Assembly: GCF_053078305.1 (NCBI RefSeq)
Contig: NZ_CP166879.1
Reading direction: 5' to 3' (one strand)
Length of the DNA: 64,000 bases
The notes beneath the pieces were generated by a model. That model was not told where the DNA came from, did not search any database, and saw only the letters and a program-made list of their open reading frames with translations. A program made the translations under genes and the position numbers. The first letter of the stretch is position 1. Each line of letters begins with the position of its first letter. Below, piece after piece: positions 2,620-31,062 of the stretch.

Positions 2620-3243
2620 CTAACGTTTACGGCGGTAAATACGGTGTTCGATCATTACACCTATGATCTGTAAGTTCATATCTGCACTACGAAAAATAGG
2701 GTAATCAGGATTTAGGGGGATTAATTCAAAGTCGTCGATGCCGATTCCTAATGGACGGTATTTTTTAAATGTAGCTTCGTGACCGTCGTTTTTGGCGACA
2801 ACAAACTCCCCTGGTGCAGGACATAGTTCAGGATCGATGATAACAATGTCTCCTTCTTTAAACTCTGGTTGCATGCTGTCGCCATCAATACGTAATGCGA
2901 AGCATGTTTCTGGAATGTCAGAGTCTGCCAAAATATATTCAAATTCCCCTGTCAGATCTGTTATGTCTCTTGCTTCTGTAAGCTCTCCTGCCTGAACGTA
3001 ACTTAATATAGGTATGCGTCTGGTACTTATCTCCGCGAGAGGCATAATATTTTTACCGTTCAGTAGCCAGTCTGGGCTACATTTCAAGGCCTTAGCCAGA
3101 TCCAGAAGATTGCGTGGCTTTCTGGTTCGTCCACTTTCGATGGATTCTATGGATTGTTGGCTAACCCCTGCAGAATTCGCTACTTCCACTTGAGTCATTC
3201 CTAATTCCAAACGACGTGCTTTAAAACGGGCTGCGAGAGACAT
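2620..3243 (-). CDS. CI-like prophage repressor (XRE-type HTH plus S24 LexA-like autopeptidase domain)
   Basis: The N-terminal HTH is MTQVEVANSAGVSQQSIESIESG. The C-terminal S24 signature is IDGDSMQPEF with a downstream FKKY lysine. I chose ATG 3243 (MSLAARF...) because AAGGA precedes it. The track start at 3294 adds 17 unlikely residues. The gene is divergent from a cro-like gene. Confidence 0.85.
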   Translation of the reverse strand: MSLAARFKARRLELGMTQVEVANSAGVSQQSIESIESGRTRKPRNLLDLAKALKCSPDWLLNGKNIMPLAEISTRRIPILSYVQAGELTEARDITDLTGEFEYILADSDIPETCFALRIDGDSMQPEFKEGDIVIIDPELCPAPGEFVVAKNDGHEATFKKYRPLGIGIDDFELIPLNPDYPIFRSADMNLQIIGVMIEHRIYRRKR

Positions 3244-3363
3244 GGGATTAGTCCTTCTGGGTTGTATTAATGTGTATACCCACATTAAAAACAATTTTTG
3301 TTGTATTTGACAAACCTCATTTGTTGTTGCTAAATACCACTAAAATTGTATGAGGTGAAAGCA
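3244..3363. promoter_or_regulatory. Immunity switch region: divergent promoters and candidate operators
   Basis: TTGACA (3307-3312), an 18-nt spacer and TAAATA (3331-3336) face cro. There is a 22-bp palindrome TTAATGTG-N6-CACATTAA at 3267-3288. GTTGTATT is repeated at 3261 and 3300. Confidence 0.5.
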
Positions 3364-3576
3364 ATGACCTTAGCGACCCGAGTAAAAGAACGACGTAAAG
3401 AACTCAAAATGACGCAAGTTACGTTGGCTGAGCTCACAGGAGTGAGCCAGCAGGCAATAAACAGAATTGAAAGTGGTGTTATTGCTCGGCCACGTTATCT
3501 TCTTGAAATGTCTATAGCATTGGATTGCGACCCTAATTGGCTGTTGTATGGCTCACAAAACGATAAAAAGGCTTAA
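3364..3576 (+). CDS. Cro-like HTH regulator
   Basis: The HTH is MTQVTLAELTGVSQQAINRIESG. GAGG precedes ATG 3364. The gene is divergent from the repressor and is first in the rightward operon. Confidence 0.75.
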   Translation: MTLATRVKERRKELKMTQVTLAELTGVSQQAINRIESGVIARPRYLLEMSIALDCDPNWLLYGSQNDKKA

Positions 3577-3579
3577 CCC

Positions 3580-5772
3580 ATGTCCGATAGCAAACCATGG
3601 GGAGCTACGCCTGATGAGTGGTTTCATTTCGACCTGGTATTGGGGAGAACTGATCATCTTCTCCCAGTTGTATGTAACCCCGGTGCGACCATATCCCCTG
3701 ATAGTAAACTGAAAGCGCTGGGTAAGACGCCAAGTCGCTATAACCGGGACCGCCAGGTCACCGGTATTGCTCAATGGACCGGGTATGTTGTTACTGAGCA
3801 TGATTTTGCCCGCTGGTCGAATGAACCGGATTATGGCATCTGCGTGCGTACAGGCCATGGCTGGCTGGCGCTGGACGGCGATAGCGAAGATGAAGACATT
3901 CAGGCAGATATTCGCAAAACGCTTGTGCAACTTCTGGGGGAGTTGCCGCCGCGACGCTGGCGAGCAAACAGTAATAAGTGTCTGTATCTGCTGGCCGTTG
4001 ATGGTGATTTCCGTAAGCGTATCCATCGCCTGGCGGGGGATATGGGCATTATCGAGTTGCTGGCGAACGGGCAGCAGTTCGTTGCCTGTGGTACGCACAG
4101 CAGCGGCGCGCGTATTGAATGGGACGGTGGTTTGCCGGATGAACCTCCGGCTATTACTGGTGAGCAGCTTGAAACGCTGTGGCAGCGCCTGGCTGAACAA
4201 CTCCCTGTGTCGGTAACCACCGAAGCGGGCAACACGAAGATGCGCGACCGATCAGCATTCACGCCCGGCGCGACGGATGATACAGCTGAATATCTTGATG
4301 CCAATGGCTGGACGCTGCTGGATGGCGCAAATGGTGAACGATATATCCGCTGTCCGTTTGAAGACGGCCACAGTAGCGGGGGCGATCCAACAAGCACAGC
4401 TTATTTTCCTGCGGGAACCGCGGGCTTTGAGCAGGGGCATTTTAAATGCCTGCATGCCAGTTGTGCGCATCGTGATGACGGAGATTTCCTTAATGCCATC
4501 GGGATCCGCAACGACGATTTCGAAGATCTGACCAGCACCGAAGTGGCGGAACCTTTACCGCTGCCTGCTTTCGAGCGTGATAAATGGGGGCGTATCGAGG
4601 CAACCATCAGCAACGCAGCCAAAGCAGTAGTACGCCCTGATTTTGTGGACATCGATATTCGCTTTGACCAGTTCCGCGACGAAATCATGTTTGCCTCTGC
4701 AGGATCCGGACAATGGCGAGCATTCACCGATGCGGATTATGCGCGCCTGCGCATCACGATGGAAAAGCGGGGATTTAAACCTGTTGGTCGTGAACTTATT
4801 CGCGATGTGGTGTTACTTGCAGCCGATGAACAACCATTCGATTCAGCGATTACCTGGCTGAACGGGCTGGAGTGGGATGGCGTGCCGCGCATCGAATGTT
4901 TCTACCATACGCACTTCGGTACAGCCGACACGCCTTATACCCGTGCGGTGTCTATGTACATGTGGACCGCGTTGGCGGGGCGAGTACTGGAGCCAGGCAT
5001 CAAAGCGGATATGGTGCCGATCCTCGTTGGTCCGCAGGGCTGCGGTAAGTCTTCCGGAGTGGAGGCACTGAGCCCTGATCCTGCGTTTTTTACTGAAATC
5101 TCTTTTGCCGAAAAAGACGATGATCTCGCTCGAAAAATGCGTGGTCGGCTGGTGGCAGAGATTGGTGAACTGCGCGGACTTAATACCAAAGAGCTGGAGT
5201 CAATCAAAGCGTTTGTGACGCGTACTCACGAAAACTGGATCCCGAAATACCGGGAGTTCGCCACCCAGTTTCCTCGTCGCCTGGTGTTCGTTGGTACCAC
5301 CAATGAGGACGAATTCCTTGCGGACAAGACTGGTAACCGTCGCTGGCTCCCCGTGGAAGTGTCGAAAGTCGACGTGAAAGCGATAAAAAGAGATCTCCTT
5401 TTACTTTGGGCTGAGGCTCGTGAGGTGTTTCAGCGTCTGGGGGGTATCCAGTTCCGTGAGGCTGAACAACTGGCAGCGAGTGTCCATGAACAGTACACCA
5501 TCAAGGATGCTTGGCTTGAAACGGTAGAGAAATGGCTCGACACGCCAGACCTGATGACTAATGAACTTCCGCGAAATTGCGAATTTTTACGCGCAAGTGA
5601 TGTTTTGCGTGATGCGATTGGGCTAAATCCTGACCGCATCGGAAAACGCGAAGAAATGCGAATTAGTAATGTTTTGCAAAATTGCGGGTATAAGCGTGTC
5701 CAAAGGCGAATTGGGGGGAAAATGACTCGAATTTTTGAGGCGGTGTCCCAACCTGTACCAGCCTCAAAATAG
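3580..5772 (+). CDS. Replication protein: primase-polymerase N-terminal domain, Cys/His zinc motif and VirE/P4-alpha-like P-loop NTPase
   Basis: 730 aa. Contains CPFEDGHS...FKCLHASCAH and the Walker A motif GPQGCGKSS. It sits directly after cro and before an iteron cluster. Confidence 0.8.
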   Translation: MSDSKPWGATPDEWFHFDLVLGRTDHLLPVVCNPGATISPDSKLKALGKTPSRYNRDRQVTGIAQWTGYVVTEHDFARWSNEPDYGICVRTGHGWLALDGDSEDEDIQADIRKTLVQLLGELPPRRWRANSNKCLYLLAVDGDFRKRIHRLAGDMGIIELLANGQQFVACGTHSSGARIEWDGGLPDEPPAITGEQLETLWQRLAEQLPVSVTTEAGNTKMRDRSAFTPGATDDTAEYLDANGWTLLDGANGERYIRCPFEDGHSSGGDPTSTAYFPAGTAGFEQGHFKCLHASCAHRDDGDFLNAIGIRNDDFEDLTSTEVAEPLPLPAFERDKWGRIEATISNAAKAVVRPDFVDIDIRFDQFRDEIMFASAGSGQWRAFTDADYARLRITMEKRGFKPVGRELIRDVVLLAADEQPFDSAITWLNGLEWDGVPRIECFYHTHFGTADTPYTRAVSMYMWTALAGRVLEPGIKADMVPILVGPQGCGKSSGVEALSPDPAFFTEISFAEKDDDLARKMRGRLVAEIGELRGLNTKELESIKAFVTRTHENWIPKYREFATQFPRRLVFVGTTNEDEFLADKTGNRRWLPVEVSKVDVKAIKRDLLLLWAEAREVFQRLGGIQFREAEQLAASVHEQYTIKDAWLETVEKWLDTPDLMTNELPRNCEFLRASDVLRDAIGLNPDRIGKREEMRISNVLQNCGYKRVQRRIGGKMTRIFEAVSQPVPASK

Positions 5773-5773
5773 A

Positions 5774-5925
5774 GGTTGGTACATTTTAACTAATTGAATT
5801 TAAAGGTCAGTACCAACTGTACCAACTGTACCAACCTAATTACTAAGAACCCCATATATATATATAAGTCGCTTGGGGAAAAGGTTTGAAAAGAGCTGGT
5901 ACAGGTGGGTACAGGTTGGTACAGG
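5774..5925. repeat. Iteron cluster flanking an (AT)n tract; candidate phage replication origin
   Basis: GTTGGTACA is at 5775-5783. Three tandem 9-bp repeats (A/T)GTACCAAC span 5809-5836. ATATATATATATA is at 5854-5866. Three GGTACAGG repeats with 10-bp spacing, in the opposite orientation, span 5898-5925. Confidence 0.55.
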
Positions 5926-6053
5926 CCGAACAAGGAATTTTTTGCACATAACAGCGTGTAATAAGCGAATCGGAACTGCGTTATCCACACCCACGGATAA
6001 ACAGACGTGGTTCTCAGAAAATTTTTTCGTAGCAAAACGTAGAGGTCAGAGCT

Positions 6054-6476
6054 ATGCGTAATATTCAACAGGTTTTAGAGCGCTGGGGTGGCTGGGCAGC
6101 GAGTGAAGGTGGTAGCGTCTACTTTCCTCCTGTTGCAGCCGGGTTTAAGAATCTGCTACCCGCGACGCAGTCTGGAAGGCTGAAATGCAGTGACAATGAC
6201 GGTCTTATCATCAACTCCGCTATGAGCTGCCTGAAGAAAAAAGATCCGTATCTGTGCACGCTCCTTGAGTGGCATTACGTCCAGGCCATGCCCGTGCGGG
6301 CGATGGGTGAGAAGCTCGGCGTATCTCACACCCACGTTCTGAAGAGGCTTCAGGCGGCAGAGGGATTTATTGACGGTTGCTTAGCCATGCTGGATGTGGT
6401 GCTCGAAATGGATCAGTCGGTTCAGTCAAAGCCTCAGGCTATCAGGACTTTGCGTAGGAGCTGCTCGGCGGCATAA
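6054..6476 (+). CDS. Late-gene antiterminator Q (phage 21/82, QuuD-like type)
   Basis: MRNIQQVLERWGGWAA...AAGFKNLL...CSDNDGLIINSAMSCLKK...KRLQAAEGFIDGCLAMLDVVLEMD matches my memory of the lambdoid Q / QuuD family. It lies upstream of a terminated leader and the lysis genes. Confidence 0.75.
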   Translation: MRNIQQVLERWGGWAASEGGSVYFPPVAAGFKNLLPATQSGRLKCSDNDGLIINSAMSCLKKKDPYLCTLLEWHYVQAMPVRAMGEKLGVSHTHVLKRLQAAEGFIDGCLAMLDVVLEMDQSVQSKPQAIRTLRRSCSAA

Positions 6477-6507
6477 TATCCAGCAATCAATCACGTAAGG
6501 GAACCAG

Positions 6508-6684
6508 ATGGCTCTGATCAGCGTTCGCAACAGATTTGAAAGCTTCATGGAACAGAGGTACCCAGACCTGTCGTTGCAGGTCAAAGGTAATATTGGCGCA
6601 TCAATGAAGGCCCAACTTGGCATCGGATTGAACGAGAATTGTACAGTGAAGATGTTACTTACTGTGATTCAGCAGTTCAGTTGA
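6508..6684 (+). CDS. Small hypothetical ORF, 58 aa (below track cutoff)
   Basis: Hand translation gives MALISVRNRFESFMEQRYPDLSLQVKGNIGASMKAQLGIGLNENCTVKMLLTVIQQFS. Its stop overlaps the next ATG (TGATG). Confidence 0.3.
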   Translation: MALISVRNRFESFMEQRYPDLSLQVKGNIGASMKAQLGIGLNENCTVKMLLTVIQQFS

Positions 6685-6848
6685 TGTGGACACTCTTTCA
6701 GGCAGGTGTTCTGGCCGAACGAAGAGCTACCAGCGTTACGCTTCCTGCGCTGAAGGCAAAGCCGGATAGCTTCTACGATGCGGGTTATAACGAAGGTATT
6801 CAGGACTGTCGTAAACATCTGACGGCATCAGGCATCAAGGTAAGATAA
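6684..6848 (+). CDS. Small hypothetical ORF, 54 aa
   Basis: An ATG internal to track ORF 6639..6848 (which starts at TTG), coupled to the preceding small ORF. Confidence 0.3.
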   Translation: MWTLFQAGVLAERRATSVTLPALKAKPDSFYDAGYNEGIQDCRKHLTASGIKVR

Positions 6849-6915
6849 AAAATAGTTGTGGAATTCCAAAAAGCCGATTAGCCTGATATCTGTTGAAAAC
6901 AGTTCATCACGAAGA

Positions 6916-6940
6916 GGCTTCCGCAAGGGGGCCTTTTTTA
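6916..6940 (+). terminator. Rho-independent terminator ending the early-right (Q) transcription unit
   Basis: The stem is GGCUUCC / GGGGGCC (7 bp, two G-U pairs). It has a GCAA tetraloop and a T6 tract. Confidence 0.7.
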
Positions 6941-7169
6941 TTGCCCCATTCTGGGGAAAAGTTAATAAAACAGGGCTTTCGCTGCGAAAAAACGCTATGC
7001 AGTTTTTGCCCTTTTTTATGCACCTTTTATTCACTCGAATTTCGTCATTCTGGACCACTTAAGTTGATTAAATAGGCCTTTCATCGCAAATCTATTGCGA
7101 GCGGGGATCGTGTGGTTCCTATAACGTACATTATGTTAAATAACTTCCTTTTTTAACAAATTTAACAAG

Positions 7170-7193
7170 GTTCGCTATGGCGAACTTTTTTTT
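7170..7193 (+). terminator. tR'-like terminator of the late leader, target for Q antitermination
   Basis: GTTCGC-TATG-GCGAAC followed by T8, about 100 nt upstream of the holin start. Confidence 0.7.
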
Positions 7194-7294
7194 GTATTCA
7201 GGGCCCACCGAAGGACGGCTCATAACCCAATCCTACGGGCGTATACGCAGGGCCCGCCTTTCAACAACACCCCGTAATGGCGGAGGTGGGAAGT

Positions 7295-7636
7295 ATGAAA
7301 ATGCACAATGCTCCTCATTCCTGGCCTGACTTACTGGAACTCTTACAAAGTTGGTGGCGTGGAGATACGCCGTTGGGCGCAGTGGTTATGTCAATTGTTA
7401 TGGCTGGCTTGCGCATTGCCTATTTTGGCGGTGGCGGCGGCTGGAAACGAAAAACGCTTGAGATTTTGCTCTGTGGTGCTCTGACGCTGACCTTTGCATC
7501 CGCTCTTGAGTATGTTGGATGGCCTAAATCTCTTTCTGTTGCCATTGGTGGTGGTGTTGGGCTGATCGGTGTCGATGCTATTCGTGGGGCTGCAATGCGA
7601 GTAATCGGTAACAAGTTTGGTGGCTCTAAGGAGTAG
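7295..7636 (+). CDS. Class I holin with MKM dual-start motif
   Basis: Three hydrophobic segments are present. GGAGG (7282-7286) lies 8 nt before ATG 7295. A second ATG at 7301 is separated from the first by one Lys codon, as in lambda S107/S105. It is the first gene of the lysis cassette. Confidence 0.7.
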   Translation: MKMHNAPHSWPDLLELLQSWWRGDTPLGAVVMSIVMAGLRIAYFGGGGGWKRKTLEILLCGALTLTFASALEYVGWPKSLSVAIGGGVGLIGVDAIRGAAMRVIGNKFGGSKE

Positions 7637-7639
7637 TTC

Positions 7640-8116
7640 ATGCAGACACTAAATTCCCAACGTAAAGCTTTCCTGGATATGGTGGCATGGTCAGAAGGAA
7701 CGGATAACGGGCGACAACCGACACGTAATCACGGTTATGACGTTATCGTCGGAGGTGAGTTGTTCACTGATTACTCCGATCACCCTCGCAAACTTGTCAC
7801 GCTAAACCCGAAGCTTAAATCAACAGCCGCAGGCCGGTATCAGCTTCTTTCACGCTGGTGGGATGCCTACCGCAAGCAGCTTGGCCTGAAAGATTTTTCG
7901 CCAGAAAGTCAGGACGCTGTGGCGCTGCAGCAGATTAAAGAGCGTGGCGCTTTACCGATGATTGACCGTGGCGATATTCGTCAGGCAATCGACCGTTGCA
8001 GCAATATCTGGGCGTCGTTACCTGGTGCAGGTTACGGTCAGTATGAACATAAAATCGGTGACCTGATTTCCAGGTTTAAAGATGCTGGTGGGGTGGTAAA
8101 TGAAGCTGACTTATAA
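7640..8116 (+). CDS. R: Endolysin, lambda R-type lytic transglycosylase
   Basis: Near-identical over most of its length to my memory of lambda R (NQRKAFLDM-AWSEGTDNGRQ-TRNHGYDVIVGGELFTDYSDHPRKLVTLNPKL...). Confidence 0.95.
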   Translation: MQTLNSQRKAFLDMVAWSEGTDNGRQPTRNHGYDVIVGGELFTDYSDHPRKLVTLNPKLKSTAAGRYQLLSRWWDAYRKQLGLKDFSPESQDAVALQQIKERGALPMIDRGDIRQAIDRCSNIWASLPGAGYGQYEHKIGDLISRFKDAGGVVNEADL

Positions 8117-8624
8117 GATTGTTATCGCGGCATTTTTCTTCTCTGCCTTTGGGGCGCTCGTCTGGTCTGCAAACCATTACCACAGCAAGTATCAGGCAGA
8201 AAAGTTGCGGGCTGATAAAGCGGAAGGTGAAGCTGAATATCAAGGGAAAGTGATAGCTAATCAGGCATTAAACTTCAATCGTTTTAACCAGATAGCAGAA
8301 AAAGCAAGCCGATTAAATTCTCTGGTCGACATCGGTCACGAGAAGACAGTCATCAAATACCGTGAGGTTCTGCTCCGTGAAAAGAACTGTGATTTCCCTG
8401 TTCCTGTTGATATTGCTGTCGGGGTGCTCAACTACGCGAACCGTTTACGCGCCAGCGCATTGCACGCCGATTCCGGGGACATTGACTCAGCCGGTGATCG
8501 TGCCACTACCACCAGAACGTTGACATATTGCCAGGCTGTTCTGTGGATTAACCCACTGTTGGCAGCCATCGAGAAGGCGAATAACCAGTTGGCTGGTGTC
8601 CGACAAATAGAACAGTCCCGGTAA
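8100..8624 (+). CDS. Rz: i-spanin (Rz-like)
   Basis: N-terminal TM anchor (IVIAAFFFSAFGALVW) followed by a coiled-coil region. It follows the endolysin and contains an embedded lipoprotein ORF in the +1 frame. Confidence 0.8.
   Translation: MKLTYKIVIAAFFFSAFGALVWSANHYHSKYQAEKLRADKAEGEAEYQGKVIANQALNFNRFNQIAEKASRLNSLVDIGHEKTVIKYREVLLREKNCDFPVPVDIAVGVLNYANRLRASALHADSGDIDSAGDRATTTRTLTYCQAVLWINPLLAAIEKANNQLAGVRQIEQSR
8377..8523 (+). CDS. Rz1: o-spanin (Rz1-like lipoprotein) embedded in Rz, 48 aa
   Basis: Hand translation of the +1 frame gives (GTG)KRTVISLFLLILLSGCSTTRTVYAPAHCTPIPGTLTQPVIVPLPPER. It has the lipobox LLSGC and a Pro-rich mature part. GAGG lies 9 nt upstream of GTG 8377. It is too short for the ORF track. 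Confidence 0.7.
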   Translation: MKRTVISLFLLILLSGCSTTRTVYAPAHCTPIPGTLTQPVIVPLPPER

Positions 8625-21995: not shown

Positions 21996-22582
21996 TGGAT
22001 ATTCTCTCTACACTTTTTCATCAGCAGAGCAGAAAAATAGGAATGATTGTTCCCAGTGTTGTTATTTCAGAGAAGCATACAGATATGCTTGAAATAACAG
22101 AGCATCCGGTAGAGGTTGGGGCCGCTGTCGCTGATCATGCCTATAAAAAACCGTCAGAAGTGGTGATGGAGGTTGGTTTCGCCGGTGGCGGCGCATTGCT
22201 GGATTTTGCCAGTAATCTGACGGCTACCAGCCTGCTCGGCCTGAGTCCTCAGCAGACGTATCAGGAGCTACTGGATCTGCAGGAAAGCCGTATCCCCTTC
22301 GATGTGGTAACCGGTAAACGACTGTACAGCAACATGTTGATCCGGGCGTTGGAAGTGACGACGGACAAGACAACCGAAAACGTCCTGTCCGCCGTCCTCA
22401 CCCTGAGGGAGGTCATTATCTCCCGGACACAGCAGATTACCGTCGCGGATAAAACCAACATGAAGGAAGGGGCCAGCACGTCGGCGGTACAGAACAGCGG
22501 CAACAAAACCACAAAGCCTCCAGATACTTCACTGCTGAAAAGCATCACGGGTAACGTGGCGTCATTACTGGGGGGCGGCTAA
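21995..22582 (+). CDS. Tail-tip/baseplate protein, hypothetical
   Basis: 195 aa. Its start overlaps the tape-measure stop. Function is assigned by position only. Confidence 0.4.
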   Translation: MDILSTLFHQQSRKIGMIVPSVVISEKHTDMLEITEHPVEVGAAVADHAYKKPSEVVMEVGFAGGGALLDFASNLTATSLLGLSPQQTYQELLDLQESRIPFDVVTGKRLYSNMLIRALEVTTDKTTENVLSAVLTLREVIISRTQQITVADKTNMKEGASTSAVQNSGNKTTKPPDTSLLKSITGNVASLLGGG

Positions 22583-22884
22583 TGACAATTCAGGAAATTC
22601 CGCTGACAGCGGACAACCAGCAGTTCAGCATCGTCCTGGGGGGTGTCACCTGGCGGATTAGCATCATATGGCGCGATCTGTACTGGATTATGGACCTGCA
22701 GAACGACAGAGGGGAGCCGGTAATCTCCGGTATTCCTCTTGTCACTGGTGCTGACCTGCTGGCGCAGTACGCCTGTATGGGGCTTGGTTTTAAGCTGGTG
22801 GTGGTCTGTGATGACAACACACAGGATTACCCCACAAAAACTGACCTGGGCGGTCGCAGCCATTTACTGGTATCAACGGAGTAA
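22582..22884 (+). CDS. Small baseplate-module protein, hypothetical
   Basis: 100 aa, with an ATGA-type overlap with the upstream gene. Confidence 0.4.
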   Translation: MTIQEIPLTADNQQFSIVLGGVTWRISIIWRDLYWIMDLQNDRGEPVISGIPLVTGADLLAQYACMGLGFKLVVVCDDNTQDYPTKTDLGGRSHLLVSTE

Positions 22885-22886
22885 GC

Positions 22887-23951
22887 ATGTCACAGAACTG
22901 GATGAGACATTTCGAGCTGCAGCTTGTGGACGGGAACGGTCAGGGAATTGAGCTAAGTGATTTCAAAGTCACCTTTACGATCGACTGGTTCAACATCAGC
23001 AGCGCGTCCCGGGTAGGGACTATCAAAATTTATAACCTCTCGGCAGATACTGTGAACCGAATTACCGGGCAGGAGTTTTCGAAAGTGCGTCTGATTGCCG
23101 GTTACGACGGTATCGCGCCGGAGGTGTCAGCAAGCGACGTAGGGACCGTGCGGGGAGTTGACGCGGCGGACGTGGGCCAGAGAGATGGCCGCAACTACGG
23201 ACTGATTTTCAGCGGTGAAATTCGCTACTCGGTCACAGGAAAAGACAGTCCGGTTGATACCTACGTCCTGATTCAGGCAGCAGATACTGATCTGGCTTTT
23301 GCCACCAGTATAACCTCACAGACGCTGGCTGCCGGTTACACGGTCGCTGATGTGAACCGTGCGCTGATGAAAGACTTCGAAGCCAAAGGCGCGACCGAAG
23401 GCCTGACGCCTGAAATGCCTGCTACTGTATTCCCCCGGGGGCGGGTACTCTTTGGCATGACGCGGCATCTAATGGATAACGTAGCCGGACAATGTGGCGC
23501 AACATGGCAATTCGTGGACGGTCAGCGCCAGATGGTGGCGAATAACGAATATGTTCACGAAGCGATTGTGCTCAACAGCGCTACCGGGCTTATTGGCATG
23601 CCGCAGCAGACTATCGGTAACGGCGTAAACGTCCGCGCGCTTATTAATCCGAACATCCGGGTTAACGGGCTCATTCAGCTGGATCAGGCTTCCGTCTATC
23701 GTACCGCGTTGTCGAACAACGATATTGCGATGGCTGGTGGTCAGATCACCGACCAGAACACGGACGGAAATATCACGCTCAGCGGCACCACATCGCAGCC
23801 TGCCTGCATCGCAACGGATGGCGTTTATATTGTGCGCGGGATTATGTACACTGGCGACACAAGGGGCCAGGCGTGGTACATGGATATGATGTGTGAAGCG
23901 CGTGGCGCGGCGGATCTTGTTTCCTCATCAGCGAGGGAAAGAGGGCTTTAA
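22887..23951 (+). CDS. Baseplate hub protein (Mu gp44 / P2 gpD-like position)
   Basis: 354 aa. It lies after the tape-measure-proximal genes and before the spike gene. Confidence 0.55.
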   Translation: MSQNWMRHFELQLVDGNGQGIELSDFKVTFTIDWFNISSASRVGTIKIYNLSADTVNRITGQEFSKVRLIAGYDGIAPEVSASDVGTVRGVDAADVGQRDGRNYGLIFSGEIRYSVTGKDSPVDTYVLIQAADTDLAFATSITSQTLAAGYTVADVNRALMKDFEAKGATEGLTPEMPATVFPRGRVLFGMTRHLMDNVAGQCGATWQFVDGQRQMVANNEYVHEAIVLNSATGLIGMPQQTIGNGVNVRALINPNIRVNGLIQLDQASVYRTALSNNDIAMAGGQITDQNTDGNITLSGTTSQPACIATDGVYIVRGIMYTGDTRGQAWYMDMMCEARGAADLVSSSARERGL

Positions 23952-24286
23952 TGAAACGGTTATGTTTGGCGTTAGTTATGATGGTTACTGCTCCGGCGAT
24001 GGCTGCAATTCAGTGCGGCAACTACACGATGACCGGTGACGGAATGACTGTTATTAACGGTGAAACTGTCACATCACAGAAGATAAAATTTCTGGGAAAA
24101 GATGGTGACTATTCAAACATGAAAATGGACATGGGCCTGATGCCTTCCCGTGATGGTAACAATTACGGCTTTGAGTTTGTGAAACGTAACGGAAAAGCTT
24201 TCCTGAACGTCCAGCTGCTGCAGAACAGCATGGACGCGCCGAAAATCATTGGATCTTTCCCGTGTAAAAAAGTGAGCAGCAAGTGA
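23951..24286 (+). CDS. Secreted small protein, 111 aa (cargo gene, function unknown)
   Basis: Sec signal peptide MKRLCLALVMMVTAPAMA|A. The mature part is beta-rich with two Cys. GC is lower than in the flanking genes. It is inserted between the hub and spike genes. Confidence 0.6.
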   Translation: MKRLCLALVMMVTAPAMAAIQCGNYTMTGDGMTVINGETVTSQKIKFLGKDGDYSNMKMDMGLMPSRDGNNYGFEFVKRNGKAFLNVQLLQNSMDAPKIIGSFPCKKVSSK

Positions 24287-24795
24287 CAGTTGATGATGAT
24301 CCTTTGAATTCATTTCAAGACCCTGACTTTCAGGAACTTCTCGGCGGAATTGATATTACTCTTGTTATAAGGTTTTTTAATTATTTTTCGCGTTTCGAAT
24401 ATGCGTTAAAAAGAATTAATTTCAAAAAAACTGATCGTAGAAATTATCTAATCGGTGCTGACTGGAGCCGCTACGCTACTGATGATACGCGGCCTTTATA
24501 TCCTACTGGAAATAGAAATGTCGATAGGGCAGTTGAGTATCTATGTCAGCAACCTGTGAAGCAGCAGAGGCATGATTTTTCGTGGGAGGATAAACCTCCA
24601 ATCGAACCTCATTCTCTTGCTGAAGCATTAAAGCAGATCCCGTATATAAGAAATAATCTCTTTCACGGCGGGAAGTATTTACGTCCCGACCCCGTTCGTG
24701 ATGAAAAGTTATTGAAATACTCTATTTATTTGATGCAGTTGTGTTTGATAACTGATAATCAGCTTTCTGAATACTTTAATACTATCCACCGATAG
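24283..24795 (+). CDS. HEPN-motif protein, 170 aa (cargo gene; candidate RNase/abortive-infection effector)
   Basis: IPYIRNNLFHGGK contains R-N-x-x-x-H, the HEPN Rx4-6H signature. The gene is AT-rich (14 G+C in 24361-24420). It uses a GTG start overlapping the upstream stop, so the start is uncertain. A strong terminator follows. Confidence 0.5.
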   Translation: MTVDDDPLNSFQDPDFQELLGGIDITLVIRFFNYFSRFEYALKRINFKKTDRRNYLIGADWSRYATDDTRPLYPTGNRNVDRAVEYLCQQPVKQQRHDFSWEDKPPIEPHSLAEALKQIPYIRNNLFHGGKYLRPDPVRDEKLLKYSIYLMQLCLITDNQLSEYFNTIHR

Positions 24796-24813
24796 TCATT
24801 CTTCATGAGATAA

Positions 24814-24837
24814 AACCTGCCACCCGGCGGGTTTTTT
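24814..24837 (+). terminator. Rho-independent terminator closing the cargo insert inside the late operon
   Basis: AACCTGCC-ACCC-GGCGGGTT followed by TTTT. Confidence 0.75.
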
Positions 24838-24855
24838 GCTTTTTGGAGCCTAACA

Positions 24856-25608
24856 ATGGCAGTAACTGACCAGACCCGCAGTGGCGATCTTGCCGAAACA
24901 TTTAAATCTGAACGGGAAACAACAAAGAACCAGATCCGTGTCGCCTTGCCTGGCATTATTCAGTCATTCGATCCTGACGCGGTGACGGCGGTTGTGCAGC
25001 CAGCTATCCGGTCGGTTGAAAAGGATAACGACGGTAACCGCATTACCAAAAATTACCCATTGCTGGTGGATGTGCCAGTGGTATTCCCGCGCGGCGGAGG
25101 CTGTACGTTGACTTTTCCGGTAAAAGCTGGGGATGAGTGTCTTGTCGTTTTTGCCGATCGTTGTATTGATTTCTGGTGGCAGAGCGGCGGGATACAGGAG
25201 ACGGTTGATGACAGAATGCATGATTTATCGGATGCGTTTTGTATTGTCGGTCCCCAGTCGCAGGCAAGGAAGATTAGCGGTATTAATACCAGTGCCACAC
25301 AGTTGCGTAGTGACGACGGCAGCACCTATTTTGAGCTTAATCCTGATACCCGGAAAATTAAAATTGTCGCTCCGGGGGGGCTTGATGTGGTTGCCCCCCT
25401 GGCTGATTTTTCTGAGAAAGTAACCATTCATGGCCTGTTAACCTGGATGGGGGGCATGGTGGGGTCTGTTGTTTCTGGTGTGGCTTCAAAAATCACTGGT
25501 GCTGTTGAGTTTTTGGGTAGCGTGAAGGCTAACGGCAAGCCAATCGATGATACGCACACTCATGGTGGTGTTCAGCGCGGTGGAAGCAATACCGACGGAG
25601 TAAACTGA
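24856..25608 (+). CDS. Baseplate central spike (Mu gp45 / gp138-N / gpV-like)
   Basis: IRVALPGIIQSFDPD...PLLVDVPVVFP...GDECLVVFADRCID is typical of spike OB-fold N-domains (from memory). Confidence 0.65.
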   Translation: MAVTDQTRSGDLAETFKSERETTKNQIRVALPGIIQSFDPDAVTAVVQPAIRSVEKDNDGNRITKNYPLLVDVPVVFPRGGGCTLTFPVKAGDECLVVFADRCIDFWWQSGGIQETVDDRMHDLSDAFCIVGPQSQARKISGINTSATQLRSDDGSTYFELNPDTRKIKIVAPGGLDVVAPLADFSEKVTIHGLLTWMGGMVGSVVSGVASKITGAVEFLGSVKANGKPIDDTHTHGGVQRGGSNTDGVN

Positions 25609-25961
25609 TGCGATACAGACGTGAAGACGCCGATGGCGATTACACCTTTGGCAGCGGTGATGACACCTGGCTGATTAACTCACCGGAGGCCGTGGCGCAG
25701 GCGGTAAAAACGCGATTCGAATTGTGGTATGGGCAATGGTTTCTCGACACCACCGAGGGGACTCCGTGGATCCAGTCCGTACTCGGTAAGCAGAAGCCGG
25801 AAACCTACAACCTGGCGATCCGTAAGCGCATCCTCGAAACGCGGGGCGTTAAATCAATCCTCTCTTTCAATACGACGGTGGATACCACGACCCGACGTGT
25901 CATGTTTTCCGCTGAAATCGACACTCTTTATGGAATAACGACTGTTACATCGGAGGCGTAA
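25608..25961 (+). CDS. Baseplate wedge protein (gp25/W or Mu gp46-like position)
   Basis: 117 aa, between the spike and the J-like gene, with overlapping starts. Confidence 0.5.
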   Translation: MRYRREDADGDYTFGSGDDTWLINSPEAVAQAVKTRFELWYGQWFLDTTEGTPWIQSVLGKQKPETYNLAIRKRILETRGVKSILSFNTTVDTTTRRVMFSAEIDTLYGITTVTSEA

Positions 25962-27160
25962 TGGCTCTGAACCTTGATTCTCTCGGTTTATCTGCAAAGG
26001 TAACCGCGGAGGGGATCAGTGCGCCTGATTATCAGACGATACTCAGCACCCTGATTAGCTATTTTCAGCAGATTTATGGCAGTGATGCCTACCTCGAACC
26101 GGACAGCAAAGACGGCCAGATGGTGGCTCTGATGGCGCTGGCGATTCATGATGCCAATAATATGGCGATAACTGTCTACAACTGTTTTTCACCGGCAACC
26201 GGCTATGGGGCTGCACTGACCAGTAACGTGAAAATAAATGGTATTTCACGTAAAGGCGCGACGAACTCTACGGTTGATTTGCTTCTTACAGGAACTGCCG
26301 GAACAACCATCATTAATGGCAGCGTGAAAGACAGTAATAATGTGATATGGCGTTTGCCTGCTTCAGTAGTGGTCGGCGTGGATGGTACAGTGATGGCGAC
26401 CGCAACATGTTCCGTCAGTGGTGCAGTGGCGGCGCTGGCTGGAACTATCACTGAAATTAATACGCCAACCCGTGGCTGGGTTTCGGTAACTAATCCTGCT
26501 GCGGCTACTGTGGGCACTCTGGCAGAAACTGACGCGGAGTTACGTATCCGTCAGTCGCAAAGTGTTGCGTTGCCATCAATAACCCCATTTGAAGCACTGG
26601 ATGGTGCTGTTTCTAATGTTACCGGTGTAACCCGCCACAAACTCTATGAAAACGATACTGGTTCGGAGGACGGTAACGGGTTACCGCCACACTCTGTTGC
26701 TGTAATTGTGGATGGCGGTGATGTGACGGATATTGCTCAGGCTATCAGAGGGAATAAAGGCCAGGGGACAGCCACTCACGGTACAACATCCGTTACGGTT
26801 CCGGATAAATACGGCAATCCCCATGTAATCAAATTCTCGCGTTCCAGTGATGTGCCTGTTTATGCCCGGATTAAATTAAAAGTTTTTACGGGTTATACCT
26901 CACAGATAGGGCAGCAGATCCAGCAGGCTATTTCCGACTATATCAATAGTTTGACGATTGGTGATTCGGTCCTTTTAAGTCGCATTTACTCACCGGCGAA
27001 TCTTGGCGTGGTGAGTGGCGGGAATGCACGCTATTACGATATTCAGGAACTGACGATTGGGAAATCCCCGGGGGCTTTGTCGTCATCAAACATTGATATC
27101 AGATACAACGAATCTGCGTCCTGTACCCCGGAAAATATCGTTATAACGGTGGAGTCATGA
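25961..27160 (+). CDS. Baseplate J-like protein (Mu gp47-like)
   Basis: 399 aa. The position and N-terminal region are consistent with the Baseplate_J family (from memory). Confidence 0.65.
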   Translation: MALNLDSLGLSAKVTAEGISAPDYQTILSTLISYFQQIYGSDAYLEPDSKDGQMVALMALAIHDANNMAITVYNCFSPATGYGAALTSNVKINGISRKGATNSTVDLLLTGTAGTTIINGSVKDSNNVIWRLPASVVVGVDGTVMATATCSVSGAVAALAGTITEINTPTRGWVSVTNPAAATVGTLAETDAELRIRQSQSVALPSITPFEALDGAVSNVTGVTRHKLYENDTGSEDGNGLPPHSVAVIVDGGDVTDIAQAIRGNKGQGTATHGTTSVTVPDKYGNPHVIKFSRSSDVPVYARIKLKVFTGYTSQIGQQIQQAISDYINSLTIGDSVLLSRIYSPANLGVVSGGNARYYDIQELTIGKSPGALSSSNIDIRYNESASCTPENIVITVES

Positions 27161-27837
27161 GCAAATACACCGAACTAATCACGAACTACCACGCCACCAA
27201 ACCTAAATTTCTTGCGCATGTTGATCTGATGACCCGGCCGCTTATTGATGTTGCGGCTGCCACCAGAGGGCTGATTACTGCATTTGATATTGACTCTGCG
27301 GTTGGTGTGCAACTTGACATTCTGGGATTGTGGATCGGACGTAGCCGTGTTGTCAGCCAGCCTATCTCAGGTGTCTATTTCAGCTGGGATACCGACGGGC
27401 TTGGATATGATCAGGGGGTATGGCAGGGACCATACGATCCTGATTCCGGATACATGTACCTCAGCGATGAAACTTATCGTGTCATTCTTAAAGCGAAGAT
27501 TGCGATTAATAACTGGGATGGACGGAATGATTCGCTTCCGGCAATTCTTGACGCTGCAACAGCAGGATCCGGGCTGCGAATGCAGATAGTCGATAACCAG
27601 GACATGACGATATCGGTCTGGGTCTTTCCTGATACTGATATTTCAGATGTATCGCGTGAGTTAATTGCGGCAATTAAACAGGGGTATCTCACAGTAAAAG
27701 CCGCCGGGGTATGGGCGGGTGGCATTGAAACACCTTCGGTGGAAACCCCATCGGAAGGCTCAAAATTTTTTGGTTTTGATATGGATAACGAATTCATCAG
27801 TGGTTTTGATGTAGGAGCATGGGGAGTATTACTCTGA
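27157..27837 (+). CDS. Baseplate protein (DUF2612 / Mu gp48-like from memory)
   Basis: 226 aa, directly upstream of the tail fibre gene. Confidence 0.55.
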   Translation: MSKYTELITNYHATKPKFLAHVDLMTRPLIDVAAATRGLITAFDIDSAVGVQLDILGLWIGRSRVVSQPISGVYFSWDTDGLGYDQGVWQGPYDPDSGYMYLSDETYRVILKAKIAINNWDGRNDSLPAILDAATAGSGLRMQIVDNQDMTISVWVFPDTDISDVSRELIAAIKQGYLTVKAAGVWAGGIETPSVETPSEGSKFFGFDMDNEFISGFDVGAWGVLL

Positions 27838-28292
27838 TGGCGAAAAATGACTTTAAAGCGTTTGCAACGGATCGAAATGCCAATGTTATATCGCAGGAGG
27901 AATGGGAAGCGTTGCCCGCGCTTTTATCCGGATTTACAGCAGGGAAAGCCTCCAGTGCGCAAGTCAATAAGGTTATTCGGCAGGTCAGCTTTATTGCTGC
28001 AGCTCTGGCCCAGTTTGTAAGTGATAAAACGCAACGGGATGTGCTTGATAATGGTGATCTGCCCGGTTTTGTTGAATTGCTGGGATCGGGGTTTGCTGTT
28101 GAATACCTGAGCCGCAAGAATCCGTTTGGTGATATCAAATCGGATGGCACGGTGAAAACGGCTCTCGAAAACCTTGGTTTGGGAGAAGAGCACAGCGTTA
28201 AGCCGGGTTGTTTCTGCCTGCGTCAGCTTCCGCCCGGCCTGCAATTTCAGCTGAATCAGACTAATGGAAGCCATAGCCGCATCAATCAGTGA
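27837..28292 (+). CDS. Tail fibre, constant N-terminal part (Sc). In this orientation it is not joined to a receptor-binding domain.
   Basis: ATG 27837 overlaps the upstream stop (TGATG). The sequence is sensible up to ...KTALENLGLGE at the crossover site (28162-28187). It then reads antisense tfa DNA (EHSVKPGCFCLRQLPPGLQF...) to a stop at 28292. Confidence 0.65.
   Translation: MAKNDFKAFATDRNANVISQEEWEALPALLSGFTAGKASSAQVNKVIRQVSFIAAALAQFVSDKTQRDVLDNGDLPGFVELLGSGFAVEYLSRKNPFGDIKSDGTVKTALENLGLGEEHSVKPGCFCLRQLPPGLQFQLNQTNGSHSRINQ
28162..28187. repeat. Invertase crossover site, left (hix/gix/pix-like, 26 bp)
   Basis: CTCTCGAAAACC-TT-GGTTTGGGAGAA. Its reverse complement shares TTCTCCCAAACCAA with the right site. 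It resembles hix TTCTTGAAAACCAAGGTTTTTGATAA. Confidence 0.7.
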
Positions 28293-28715
28293 CTGGCGCC
28301 GTACTTCTGCCGCGTCTACTGCGGCGTTATGCTGTGCCTCAGTGTCGGTCACCCATTTCTCACCATCCCATTTATCGTATGACGTTAACGGGGCGATAGT
28401 GGTTGTATTTTCAGGGTAATCACCCGGAACTGTGATTTCTTTTGATTCTCCTGTTTCGGTGCTATAGACGATTTCACCGCGATGGTCTGGCACATATTCC
28501 CATGAGTTAAAATCTGCAGAACGGCAAATTGCATAACCAGCTTTATATGAGCCAGGAGCATCTAAACAGGAACATGCCGGGATACCGACACCCACAGCAA
28601 GATATTCAGTTGATGTGGAAATATATTCCCGTGTTTCACCATCATAATTATAAACGGTAATGTCTCCGGCCTTTGTGGCGATGAGTTCATTATTTAATAC
28701 AGCTTTACTTATCAT
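28188..28715 (-). CDS. Tail fibre assembly protein (Tfa/U-like), native C-terminus missing
   Basis: MISKAVLNNELIATKAGDITVYNYDGE...KLTQAETTRLNAVL is Tfa-like. The usual last ~25 residues (xYxxxVxxVDxSxAPDIxWP) are absent. The ORF instead runs through the crossover site into antisense fibre DNA down to 27924. Confidence 0.6.
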
Positions 28716-29183
28716 GCAGCCCTCACAATATAATTAAAGGCGATGTTACGGGAGCGGGTTTCAGATGCTGTGCGAACTGAGCGAGATGCGTCGAATGTCC
28801 AGTTATAAGCGCCATAACCCTCAATAATTTCGGCTTCCTTTAGACCTGTAGATAATACTTGCCCATGTTGACTAAATGGCCCTGAACTAAGTACGTCTCT
28901 AAAAAGCTGGGTACGCCCAAAAGAACCAACAATATTCTGAATTGCATCATTCTGTGCAGATAATAAGTTACGACCAGAGTCAATCCCGCGCCCATCATCC
29001 CAGCCACGAATAAATTCACCGCGTAAATCTGGTAATTTTAATGTTGGGTAAGCCTTTGCCAGATTTGGGTACTTTTCAGAAGAAAATACTGCTCCGTTAC
29101 ATTTTAGCCACCCCATTGGCGGAGTGGCTGAAGGCCACGGAACAGGCACACCAACCGGTAATGCAGAGCCTTCTCCCAAACCA
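28712..29183 (-). CDS. Tail fibre variable C-terminal cassette (tail-collar, receptor-binding), with no start of its own
   Basis: GLGEGSALPVGVPVPWPSATPPMGWLKCNGAVFSSEKYPNLAKAYP...LPDLRGEFIRGWDDGRG is the phage tail-collar motif. It begins inside the right crossover site in the same GLGE frame as Sc, so inversion would fuse it to Sc. Confidence 0.7.
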
Positions 29184-29196
29184 ACGTTTATGAAAA
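29171..29196. repeat. Invertase crossover site, right (26 bp), inverted relative to the left site
   Basis: TTCTCCCAAACC-AA-CGTTTATGAAAA. Confidence 0.7.
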
Positions 29197-29250
29197 TGCA
29201 GAAATAACGAGCAAATGGCATCATTCCTGCTTTTGTCAGGGAGATCTACC

Positions 29251-29805
29251 ATGCTTATTGGCTATGTACGCGTATCAACAAATGACCAGAATACCGATCT
29301 ACAACGTAATGCGTTGAACTGTGCAGGATGCGAGCTGATTTTTGAAGACAAGATAAGCGGTACAAAGTCCGAAAGGCCGGGACTGAAAAAACTGCTCAGG
29401 ACATTATCGGCAGGTGACACTCTGGTTGTCTGGAAGCTGGATCGGCTGGGGCGTAGTATGCGGCATCTGGTCATTCTGGTTGAGGAGTTGCGCGAACGTG
29501 GCGTTAATTTTCGCAGCCTGACGGATGCTATTGATACCAGCACACCGATGGGGCGTTTTTTCTTTCATGTGATGGGGGCCCTGGCTGAAATGGAACGAGA
29601 ACTGATTGTTGAACGAACAAAAGCTGGACTGGAAGCTGCTCGCGCACAGGGACGAATTGGTGGACGTCGTCCCAAACTTACACCAGAACAATGGGCGCAG
29701 GCCGGGCGACTAATTGCATCAGGAGTTCCTCGCCAGAAGGTGGCGATCATTTATGATGTTGGCGTATCGACTTTGTATAAGAAGTTTCCGGTCGGAGATA
29801 AATGA
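29251..29805 (+). CDS. Serine DNA invertase (Gin/Pin/Cin/Hin family)
   Basis: The sequence MLIGYVRVSTNDQNTDLQRNAL...GRRPKL... ending in a C-terminal HTH matches the family, including the catalytic Ser in YVRVSTNDQ. GGGAG lies upstream of ATG 29251. Confidence 0.9.
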   Translation: MLIGYVRVSTNDQNTDLQRNALNCAGCELIFEDKISGTKSERPGLKKLLRTLSAGDTLVVWKLDRLGRSMRHLVILVEELRERGVNFRSLTDAIDTSTPMGRFFFHVMGALAEMERELIVERTKAGLEAARAQGRIGGRRPKLTPEQWAQAGRLIASGVPRQKVAIIYDVGVSTLYKKFPVGDK

Positions 29806-29885
29806 AACCGTAGCACGTCGTATGCAAGAACGTGCCACGGCTGGCTGATAAGCTTGTAAAAATATTGAACAGGGAGTGGAGCATT

Positions 29886-30533
29886 CTATGAAGCTAATTT
29901 GTTTAATTTCATTTGTAGTGACTTTACTTCTTGGTCGATAATGTCGAATCCCTTATTGACAGCATCTCTTAGCTCTGCATCAATATTTTTTATCCCTTGA
30001 GCATAATCTACCATTATATTTATTTTTGCATCATGTAATCTCTTATACATGGTTTTATTTTTGTTATTGTCTGCCATGCCAATAAGGATTTTTTCATAAT
30101 CCTCAATGAGTTTGTTGTTTCCTTTAAATGATTGTATTAATGAGCGTGAATATGTGTATATGTTAATTATTGAGTCTCTAGCAGAATCATTTAGTTTTGC
30201 AATGACATTCGCATTTTGCTCATAGAATGTGAAATTATCATCCCCTACAGGGAATGTGAGAATCAACATTTGTCCCGGTTTTATATTATCAATGTGTGTT
30301 TTCATCCTTTTATTATATAAATTGATTAGGGTGAAAACTTCTCCCTTAACTCCTTTTAATACTGAAAGTTGTAATTCAAGGGATTCTCTTTCTGTCTCTA
30401 CTTTAGACAGCTTAGCTTGTTGGGTAACTCCTTTTAGGGTAAACCATCCGCCAATAAGAGTACCAACTAGAGCTGTGAGGGAGGAGGATAACCATCCAGG
30501 TATGCTATTTAAAAGATTACTAAATTCACTCAT
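29886..30533 (-). CDS. Membrane-anchored coiled-coil protein, 215 aa (cargo, function unknown)
   Basis: N-terminal hydrophobic helix LSSSLTALVGTLIGGWFTL, then QQAKLSKVETERESLELQLSVLKG, then an Asn/Lys-rich C-terminal domain. Very low GC (14 G+C in 30001-30060). Confidence 0.6.
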   Translation of the reverse strand: MSEFSNLLNSIPGWLSSSLTALVGTLIGGWFTLKGVTQQAKLSKVETERESLELQLSVLKGVKGEVFTLINLYNKRMKTHIDNIKPGQMLILTFPVGDDNFTFYEQNANVIAKLNDSARDSIINIYTYSRSLIQSFKGNNKLIEDYEKILIGMADNNKNKTMYKRLHDAKINIMVDYAQGIKNIDAELRDAVNKGFDIIDQEVKSLQMKLNKLAS

Positions 30534-30593: not shown

Positions 30594-30935
30594 CTACTGG
30601 AGAAGGCTACCTGAACTTCGATCTATTCCTGCATCCATATAGTTGATGGTCTTCTGGAGCTCTTCGATTAGGGCAACAGCTTTTGCTCGAGAAATGCATA
30701 TTAGTTGATCCGGAAATTCTTGTAAGGGCCAGTTTGGTATACAGGCCATGTTATCAATGAAGGATGCAGACAAGTAAACTTCATTGGTAACCAGAGAATA
30801 GCTTACCTCAAAATTGGTGAGTTCCGGCAAACTGCTAACGTTTGACTCTTTTCTGCGCATAATATTATCCATGACTGTAATTATGTACAGGTGATGGTCT
30901 TCAATTTCGAAGAGGGAGTCAAGGGGGAGTCTCAA
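30594..30935 (-). CDS. Small acidic protein, 92-113 aa (cargo, function unknown)
   Basis: Low-GC ORF upstream of, and co-oriented with, the 215-aa gene. The start is ambiguous (TTG 30935 or ATG 30872), and neither has a good SD. Confidence 0.45.
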   Translation of the reverse strand: MRLPLDSLFEIEDHHLYIITVMDNIMRRKESNVSSLPELTNFEVSYSLVTNEVYLSASFIDNMACIPNWPLQEFPDQLICISRAKAVALIEELQKTINYMDAGIDRSSGSLLQ

Positions 30936-31062
30936 ATGAACCGTTATAGAAAAAGGGGGGGGATCTTTGTGTTGCTGAACTTATGCAAAATTTTTTTGCA
31001 CCATAAATCCAACAACACATTCAATAACACATTGCTGTATCACTATGAAAATAAATGTGTTT

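Follow-up and report, generated by a model that had tools for sequence, protein, structure and literature searches.

The DNA considered here is a stretch of 64,000 nucleotides from contig NZ_CP166879.1 (NCBI RefSeq assembly GCF_053078305.1), the whole of which is called the window below, and the subject is an invertible tail-fibre segment of the e14/Pin type that it carries. The segment closes the tail module of a SEN34-like myovirus prophage whose integration site adjoins murR/yfhB/tadA. Between two inverted crossover sites it holds a single variable fibre cassette and a truncated chaperone gene; the constant part of the fibre lies before the left site and an intact gene for the serine DNA invertase Pin beyond the right one. 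Compared with its relatives it lacks 936 bp, and it is read here as a two-cassette switch in decay. The features, with protein lengths in amino acids (aa), are the following:

27837..28187, plus strand: constant N-terminal fibre part (Sc), 117 aa, ending in ...ALENLGLGE; in relatives, annotated as the 5′ portion of fibres of 229-269 aa
28162-28187: left crossover site, CTCTCGAAAACC TT GGTTTGGGAGAA, the same bases as the left pix site of the e14 P segment
28188/28189: deletion junction, with 936 bp missing relative to two-cassette relatives (L001 4033-4968; L010 6034-6969) and no microhomology
28189..28715, minus strand: tfa′, a truncated gene for a TfaE-type tail-fibre assembly chaperone, residues 1-176 kept; identified by a Caudo_TAP match and by identity to TfaE
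28712..29170, minus strand: variable fibre cassette (Sv′), the tail-collar receptor-binding part, ~152 aa after GLGE; Pfam Collar, E=1.9e-15
29171-29196: right crossover site, TTCTCCCAAACC AA CGTTTATGAAAA, the same bases as the right pix site of the e14 P segment
29251..29805, plus strand: pin, intact serine DNA invertase, 184 aa; Pfam Resolvase 8.7e-52, HTH_7 3.6e-14

The two 26-mers at the sites, CTCTCGAAAACCTTGGTTTGGGAGAA and TTCTCCCAAACCAACGTTTATGAAAA, are imperfect palindromes that each encode GLGE in frame, and their central dinucleotides are TT and AA, so that the sites stand in inverted orientation. They are spaced 1009 bp apart, and the ~1 kb between them carries the one fibre cassette and the one tfa gene on the minus strand. 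A repeat finder returned the inverted-repeat arms at 28169-28188 and 29170-29189 (20 nt, 95% complementary), and the 14-mer common to both sites, TTCTCCCAAACCAA, occurs in two exact copies in the 64 kb, one per strand, where 0.01 would be expected by chance. When the whole window was scanned with a 26-mer palindromic consensus of the Hin/Gin type, allowing up to 7 mismatches out of 20, these two sites were the only matches; the same scan picked up the annotated boundaries of the Mu G segment as a positive control. Both sites are base-for-base identical to those that flank the P segment of the cryptic prophage e14 in K-12.

The invertase is full length, with an N-terminal resolvase catalytic domain, a C-terminal helix-turn-helix domain and the catalytic-serine motif YVRVSTNDQ. 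It is 95.7% identical to PinE and 78.3% identical to Gin, and it is a very common allele, with at least 1000 contigs carrying the exact sequence. Over its first 200 nt, pin has 4 differences from K-12 pinE. Since the PinE/P-segment system is experimentally active, the recombinational enhancer that Fis binds in the 5′ region of the gene is probably conserved. The crossover sites and Pin are intact, and nothing that is mechanically required for inversion appears to be missing from the window. The original prediction, which had named a Pin-type invertible fibre segment with 26-bp inverted crossover sites that both read GLGE in frame, agrees with the repeat finder, the 14-mer count, the identity of the sites to the e14 pix sites and the closeness of Pin to PinE.

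In the present orientation the constant fibre part is uncoupled from its cassette. As it stands, the fibre open reading frame (ORF) continues past the left site into tfa antisense for 34 codons and stops at 28292, a dead end of 151 aa in total. On the other strand, the Sv′ cassette begins at the right site with ...GLGEGSALPVGVPVPW, its tail collar domain is located after the GLGE joint, and it is expressible only once the segment is inverted. When the inversion of 28188-29170 was simulated, a 269-aa fibre was obtained with tfa placed directly behind it, and this fibre is exactly the deposited tail fibre protein KFD75474.1, which is encoded on JPQG01000003.1 of assembly GCA_000736735.1. Both the uncoupled state and its repair by inversion into an intact Sc-Sv fibre followed by tfa had been anticipated. 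The accompanying statement that the cassette has no start codon of its own needs a small correction, since in-frame ATGs do exist upstream at 29224 and 29221; a start there would span the crossover site and is unlikely to be that of a real gene. The equivalent ORF in relatives has been annotated by PGAP as a 169-aa "phage tail protein".

The chaperone gene tfa′ retains the part that specifies the variable N-terminal fibre-binding domain of Tfa: the Caudo_TAP match (E=1.9e-19) covers profile positions 1-106 of 131, and residues 3-174 are 90.7% identical to TfaE of K-12. The conserved C-terminal helical module (…LDYxDAxxxxDxSxAPDxxWPxxP) is not in the tfa′ of the window, and readthrough sequence stands in its place. 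All close TfaE-type relatives have 200-201 aa, and the lost end corresponds to the last 25 residues of these full-length proteins, DYIDAVTATDISTAPDVIWPELPEA. The ORF crosses the left site and continues to 27924 in the present orientation, reaching 263 aa; the junk codons that follow Tfa residue 176 number 87 in this orientation and 48 in the flipped one. The gene is therefore cut at the left site whichever way the segment lies, as had been claimed, and the loss comes to exactly 25 codons. PMC9608196, which cites North et al. 2019, reports that fibre trimerisation and assembly are driven by the conserved C-terminal domain of Tfa, and that the variable N-terminal domain binds the fibre. A truncated Tfa with a junk tail would probably be a crippled chaperone, although another prophage might supply a TfaE-type protein in its stead. 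As a separate observation, a family of short ORFs (65-84 aa) occupies the tfa position behind one Sv type in three other loci (L004 3385-3582, L039 4924-5178 and L079 4956-5189); this family is conserved, has no Tfa C-terminal module, and its members may be minimal chaperones, or copies of a truncated relic that became widespread.

The layout of the relatives is Sc, site, Sv and tfa in forward direction, then tfa′ and Sv′ in reverse, the second site and pin, and it is kept in every relative examined. Two cassettes were found in CD45, OkiPb01695, the P2-like phage pro483, e14, Mu, and loci L007 and L008 to L015; the last eight are among ten loci that carry the identical Sv′ ORF, the remaining two (L016, L017) lying on contigs too short to show the layout. 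Among 5426 complete E. coli genomes, 34 places covered at least 80% of the query, and all of them are ~600-940 bp longer than the window. A survey was also made of 25 Pin loci from other Enterobacterales with at least two recognisable sites, in which the sites of the 24 two-site loci are spaced 1274-2283 bp apart versus 1009 bp here, and the two most compact of these diverse loci still hold two cassettes each. Since all relatives examined have two cassettes, the single cassette represents a loss and not a native design. The original prediction had noted one cassette where relatives hold two, and alignment to related prophages did reveal a second Sv/tfa pair in all of those examined.

A comparably short interval was met only in the three-site locus L076 of Pantoea allii LMG24248, where the pin-proximal pair of sites is 1099 bp apart and encloses one Sv and tfa cassette. 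The crossover-like sites of this locus lie at 2560, 4811 and 5910, upstream of a pin homologue, and go with three alternative fibre C-termini and two tfa genes; it looks like a multiple-inversion segment of the Min/p15B type.

The extent of the loss was read from the alignment with CD45 (L001), in which window positions 27157-28188 correspond to 3001-4032 and 28189-29849 to 4969-6629, with the 936 bp between them missing. These 936 bp encode the Sv part, a whole tfa of 147 aa and, in the opposing direction, the final 25 codons of tfa′. At the junction, the complete 26-bp left site plus 1 bp is joined to ...AGCACAGCGTT of the tfa′ antisense with 0 nt of microhomology, and the event is classed as a single non-homologous (illegitimate) deletion that starts 1 bp inside the left site. 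No second copy of the lost DNA or of its proteins was found anywhere in the window by blastn or tblastn.

The closest comparison is provided by GCA_000736735.1, in effect a sister to the window, with zero substitutions over ~11.7 kb; apart from the deletion and the orientation, the sole difference is a run of G8 versus G7 at ~30955. On its 1.42-Mb contig JPQG01000003.1 (L007), identity is 100% over 22000-28188, Sc included, and over the cassette, and the lone "mismatch", at 29185, is the natural difference between the left and right sites. This contig has the full two-cassette segment (6333-8289), with the tail-collar cassette in the fused orientation. The same chromosomal site is represented again in the assembly on JPQG01000017.1 (L010, 17.6 kb), where, a few indels aside, the only difference is that the 1957 bp between the sites are inverted. 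The two contigs are the footprint of a culture of mixed orientation, and it follows that inversion is active in this lineage, with functional sites and invertase there and probably a functional enhancer. As to the G run itself (G8 at window 30948-30955, G7 in the sister), either an error of sequencing or slippage in a prone tract upstream of a 113-aa ORF may account for it. Another observation is that many draft-genome contigs (L025, L027, L028, L030, L037, L038, L040 and others) break off 64-205 bp short of pin, at or near the right site, as would be expected if the cultures were heterogeneous for the orientation of the segment.

The single-cassette layout is private to this genome among the collections searched. 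A 31-mer across the junction, which spans only the inner half-site and internal sequence and is independent of orientation for this reason, was not found in genome_contigs, metagenome_contigs or viral_contigs; the 5426 complete E. coli genomes gave no single-piece match across the junction with the downstream sequence; and the exact readthrough proteins of 151, 263 and 224 aa were not among ~15 billion proteins.

We consider it about 80% probable that the segment is an E. coli prophage switch of the e14/Pin type which decayed by the 936-bp loss of Sv, tfa and the end of tfa′, and that it is not a new kind of switch. In the ancestral switch, Pin would have fused the constant fibre part to either Sv or Sv′, each provided with its own chaperone. 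One non-homologous deletion would then have taken Sv and tfa together with the 25 terminal codons of tfa′, sparing the sites and pin. The remnant should still be mechanically invertible: the present state would be the 151-aa dead end, with no fibre made, and the flipped state would give the normal 269-aa tail-collar fibre, followed by a Tfa with 48 junk residues in place of its C-terminal module. Pin may still flip the shortened segment, and ON/OFF behaviour is a plausible mechanical consequence of the layout that remains. Even when ON, the switch would probably depend on another prophage for a compatible Tfa, and the locus most likely belongs to a decaying prophage rather than being an evolved ON/OFF device.

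Several points weigh against this reading. The left endpoint of the deletion falls on the inner edge of the repeat, at the first variable base, and the right endpoint on the codon with which the conserved Tfa C-terminal module begins, two coincidences that a random deletion leaves unexplained; stalling of replication at a Pin-bound site as the cause of the left endpoint is speculation. Natural short Tfa-like proteins without the C-terminal module exist together with another Sv type, so that the loss of the module is no proof of a loss of function, and the Tfa defect is to be taken as inferred. Finally, the evidence for the deletion is the assembled sequence, and present-day inversion in this genome is a prediction.

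The 936-bp deletion might, instead, be an artefact of assembly or consensus, i.e., a wrong join produced from a two-cassette culture of mixed orientation. Such an origin would be in keeping with the sister assembly, which is otherwise identical and itself holds both orientations as separate contigs, and with the absence of the junction from every other collection searched. The join is clean, however: it offers a graph or overlap assembler neither a repeat nor microhomology to collapse, and it shows no Ns and no run of low-quality indels. Furthermore, from mixed orientations one would expect contigs to break or a block to be inverted, and not the loss of internal sequence up to a point within tfa′. 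An artefact is considered unlikely, though a live alternative.

A slim chance is given to the possibility that the shortened segment flips as a genuine ON/OFF switch, by which a subpopulation of the lysogens would make fibred infectious particles or a surface fibre that affects superinfection, as has been reported of the products of e14 inversion, with folding rescued either by the truncated Tfa or by a TfaE-type chaperone of another prophage. Should the remnant prove to flip and to influence particle infectivity or superinfection, work on Pin-type switches would have in it a natural "locked-cassette" control.

It is very improbable that the single cassette is native, i.e., a selected ON/OFF phase switch for the fibre or for a fibre protein that benefits the host, with the short Tfa as its normal form. 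Both sites and Pin are intact and the ON product is a complete fibre, as this proposal would have it; when the e14 P segment inverts, the host is reported to acquire a phage-defence phenotype (PMC12529663), and a one-cassette interval does lie between adjacent sites of the three-site Pantoea allii segment. Against it stand the confinement of the layout to this genome and the two cassettes of the sister with zero substitutions. The Tfa frame has no clean end, running on into 48 or 87 nonsense codons, in contrast to its close TfaE-type relatives of 200-201 aa, and the e14 protein that is reported to block adsorption, StfE2, ends in the variable part of StfP, whose equivalent is the cassette deleted here.

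The original prediction had ascribed the deletion to the invertase, and this claim is not supported. Pin would have recombined the left site with a directly oriented quasi-site, and Cin is said to use quasi-sites for deletions (Iida and Hiestand-Nauer, in the 1980s); what speaks for such an event is that a single base pair (1 bp) separates the left endpoint from the inner end of the 26-bp left site. Serine invertases cut and exchange strands at the central dinucleotide, which puts the exchange point 13 bp from the observed junction, and half of a quasi-site should adjoin that junction, yet the left site is complete. The undeleted, otherwise identical relatives read …CGTCAATGTAATCC/AGCAC… at the right endpoint (marked by the slash), where the sequence to its left has no likeness to a crossover half-site, and no third or quasi crossover site with at most 7/20 mismatches was found in the window or in the corresponding region of the undeleted relatives. 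A deletion made by Pin itself is thus hardly credible.

Two other causes were set aside: a microhomology-mediated deletion, as 0 nt are shared at the junction, and a quasi-palindrome of the two tfa 3′ ends, whose arms are only weakly similar at the DNA level. An 8-nt likeness, CAGCGTTA, between the starts of some Sv′ alleles and tfa′ antisense is not at the breakpoint and merely made BLAST alignments cross the junction (hits H49 onwards).

What the locus documents is one step in the decay of a classic host-range switch, from an A/B switch to a toggle between a dead end and ON, with a damaged chaperone and the recombination machinery intact; its significance for biology at large is small. Related prophages carry a truncated pin beside an otherwise complete two-cassette segment (L003 5970-6062, from E. 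coli CFS3292; L004 4734-5000; L006 3983-4297), and with the lost cassette seen here this indicates that the switch decays by differing routes across strains. For annotation there is a caution, in that the ORFs of 151, 263 and 169 aa are artefacts of orientation and deletion. There is another for quality control in assembly, since invertible regions can be present in both orientations, as in the sister assembly with its two separate contigs.

The surroundings of the segment are those of a myovirus. Upstream lies a baseplate set composed of a spike protein (24856-25608), Baseplate_J (25961-27160) and a DUF2612/wedge protein (27157-27837); a 117-aa ORF at 25608-25961 has no Pfam match in the window, and its counterpart in L007 is tagged Sheath_initiator. 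The closest records for the backbone are prophage records of the vB_EcoM-606R2 type (97.9% identity) and Salmonella phage SEN34 (81.6%). Between pin and murR there are two AT-rich ORFs on the minus strand, one of 215 aa with an N-terminal hydrophobic stretch (29886-30533) and one of 113 aa (30594-30935), neither of which gave a Pfam or PADLOC match. The same slot is occupied by other genes in relatives (281 aa and 88 aa in L004 and L006), which suggests a slot for morons or defence genes at this end of the prophage.

Among known systems, the nearest by prophage type are GCA_000736735.1, CD45 (99% identical), OkiPb01695 and vB_EcoM-606R2, all of the same type as the prophage in the window and, except for CD45, inserted at the same murR-side site; they differ in that they retain the 936 bp with Sv, tfa and the C-terminus of tfa′. 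The nearest switch is the P segment of e14 in E. coli K-12, which was reportedly described together with PinE by Plasterk and van de Putte in 1985. The two share identical 26-bp sites, the invertase (95.7%), the retained part of Tfa (90.7% to TfaE) and the gene order tfa′-Sv′-site-pin, and the last 27 residues of the constant part (SRKNPFGDIKSDGTV.TALENLGLGE) are 26/27 identical to StfP. The e14 segment, however, has two cassettes (stfP-tfaP and tfaE-stfE; 1797-1827 bp), whereas there is one here, on a segment of ~1.0 kb and with tfa′ truncated; the receptor-binding part of Sv′ is 57% identical to StfE; and the N-terminus of the fibre and the whole backbone are different, i.e., those of a SEN34-like myovirus and not of the lambdoid e14. 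With the same inverted repeat, the e14 segment was found by sequencing and qPCR to invert under both PinE and PinQ (PMC12529663; also PMC4272514), and its inversion product StfE2 is reported to block the adsorption of phage T2, which sets a precedent for a benefit to the host (PMC12529663).

The G segment of Mu (Gin) and the C segment of P1 (Cin) resemble the locus in their plan, having the constant part outside, the variable parts and chaperones inside, and the invertase gene beyond the right site. The Mu G segment differs by its 3 kb with two full S/U sets, by gix sites of another sequence and by a Tfa that is ~22% identical, and all of the host-range segments (Mu G, P1 C and e14 P) hold two alternative sets of Sv and tfa, in contrast to the one Sv and one tfa between the sites of the window. 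In size, the remnant matches the H segment of Salmonella (Hin), a true ON/OFF switch of ~1 kb with two 26-bp sites (mechanism in PMC3798978), from which it follows that a spacing of 1 kb is workable for this family of invertases. Hin flips a promoter and not a coding cassette, and its enhancer and the hin gene itself lie inside the segment.

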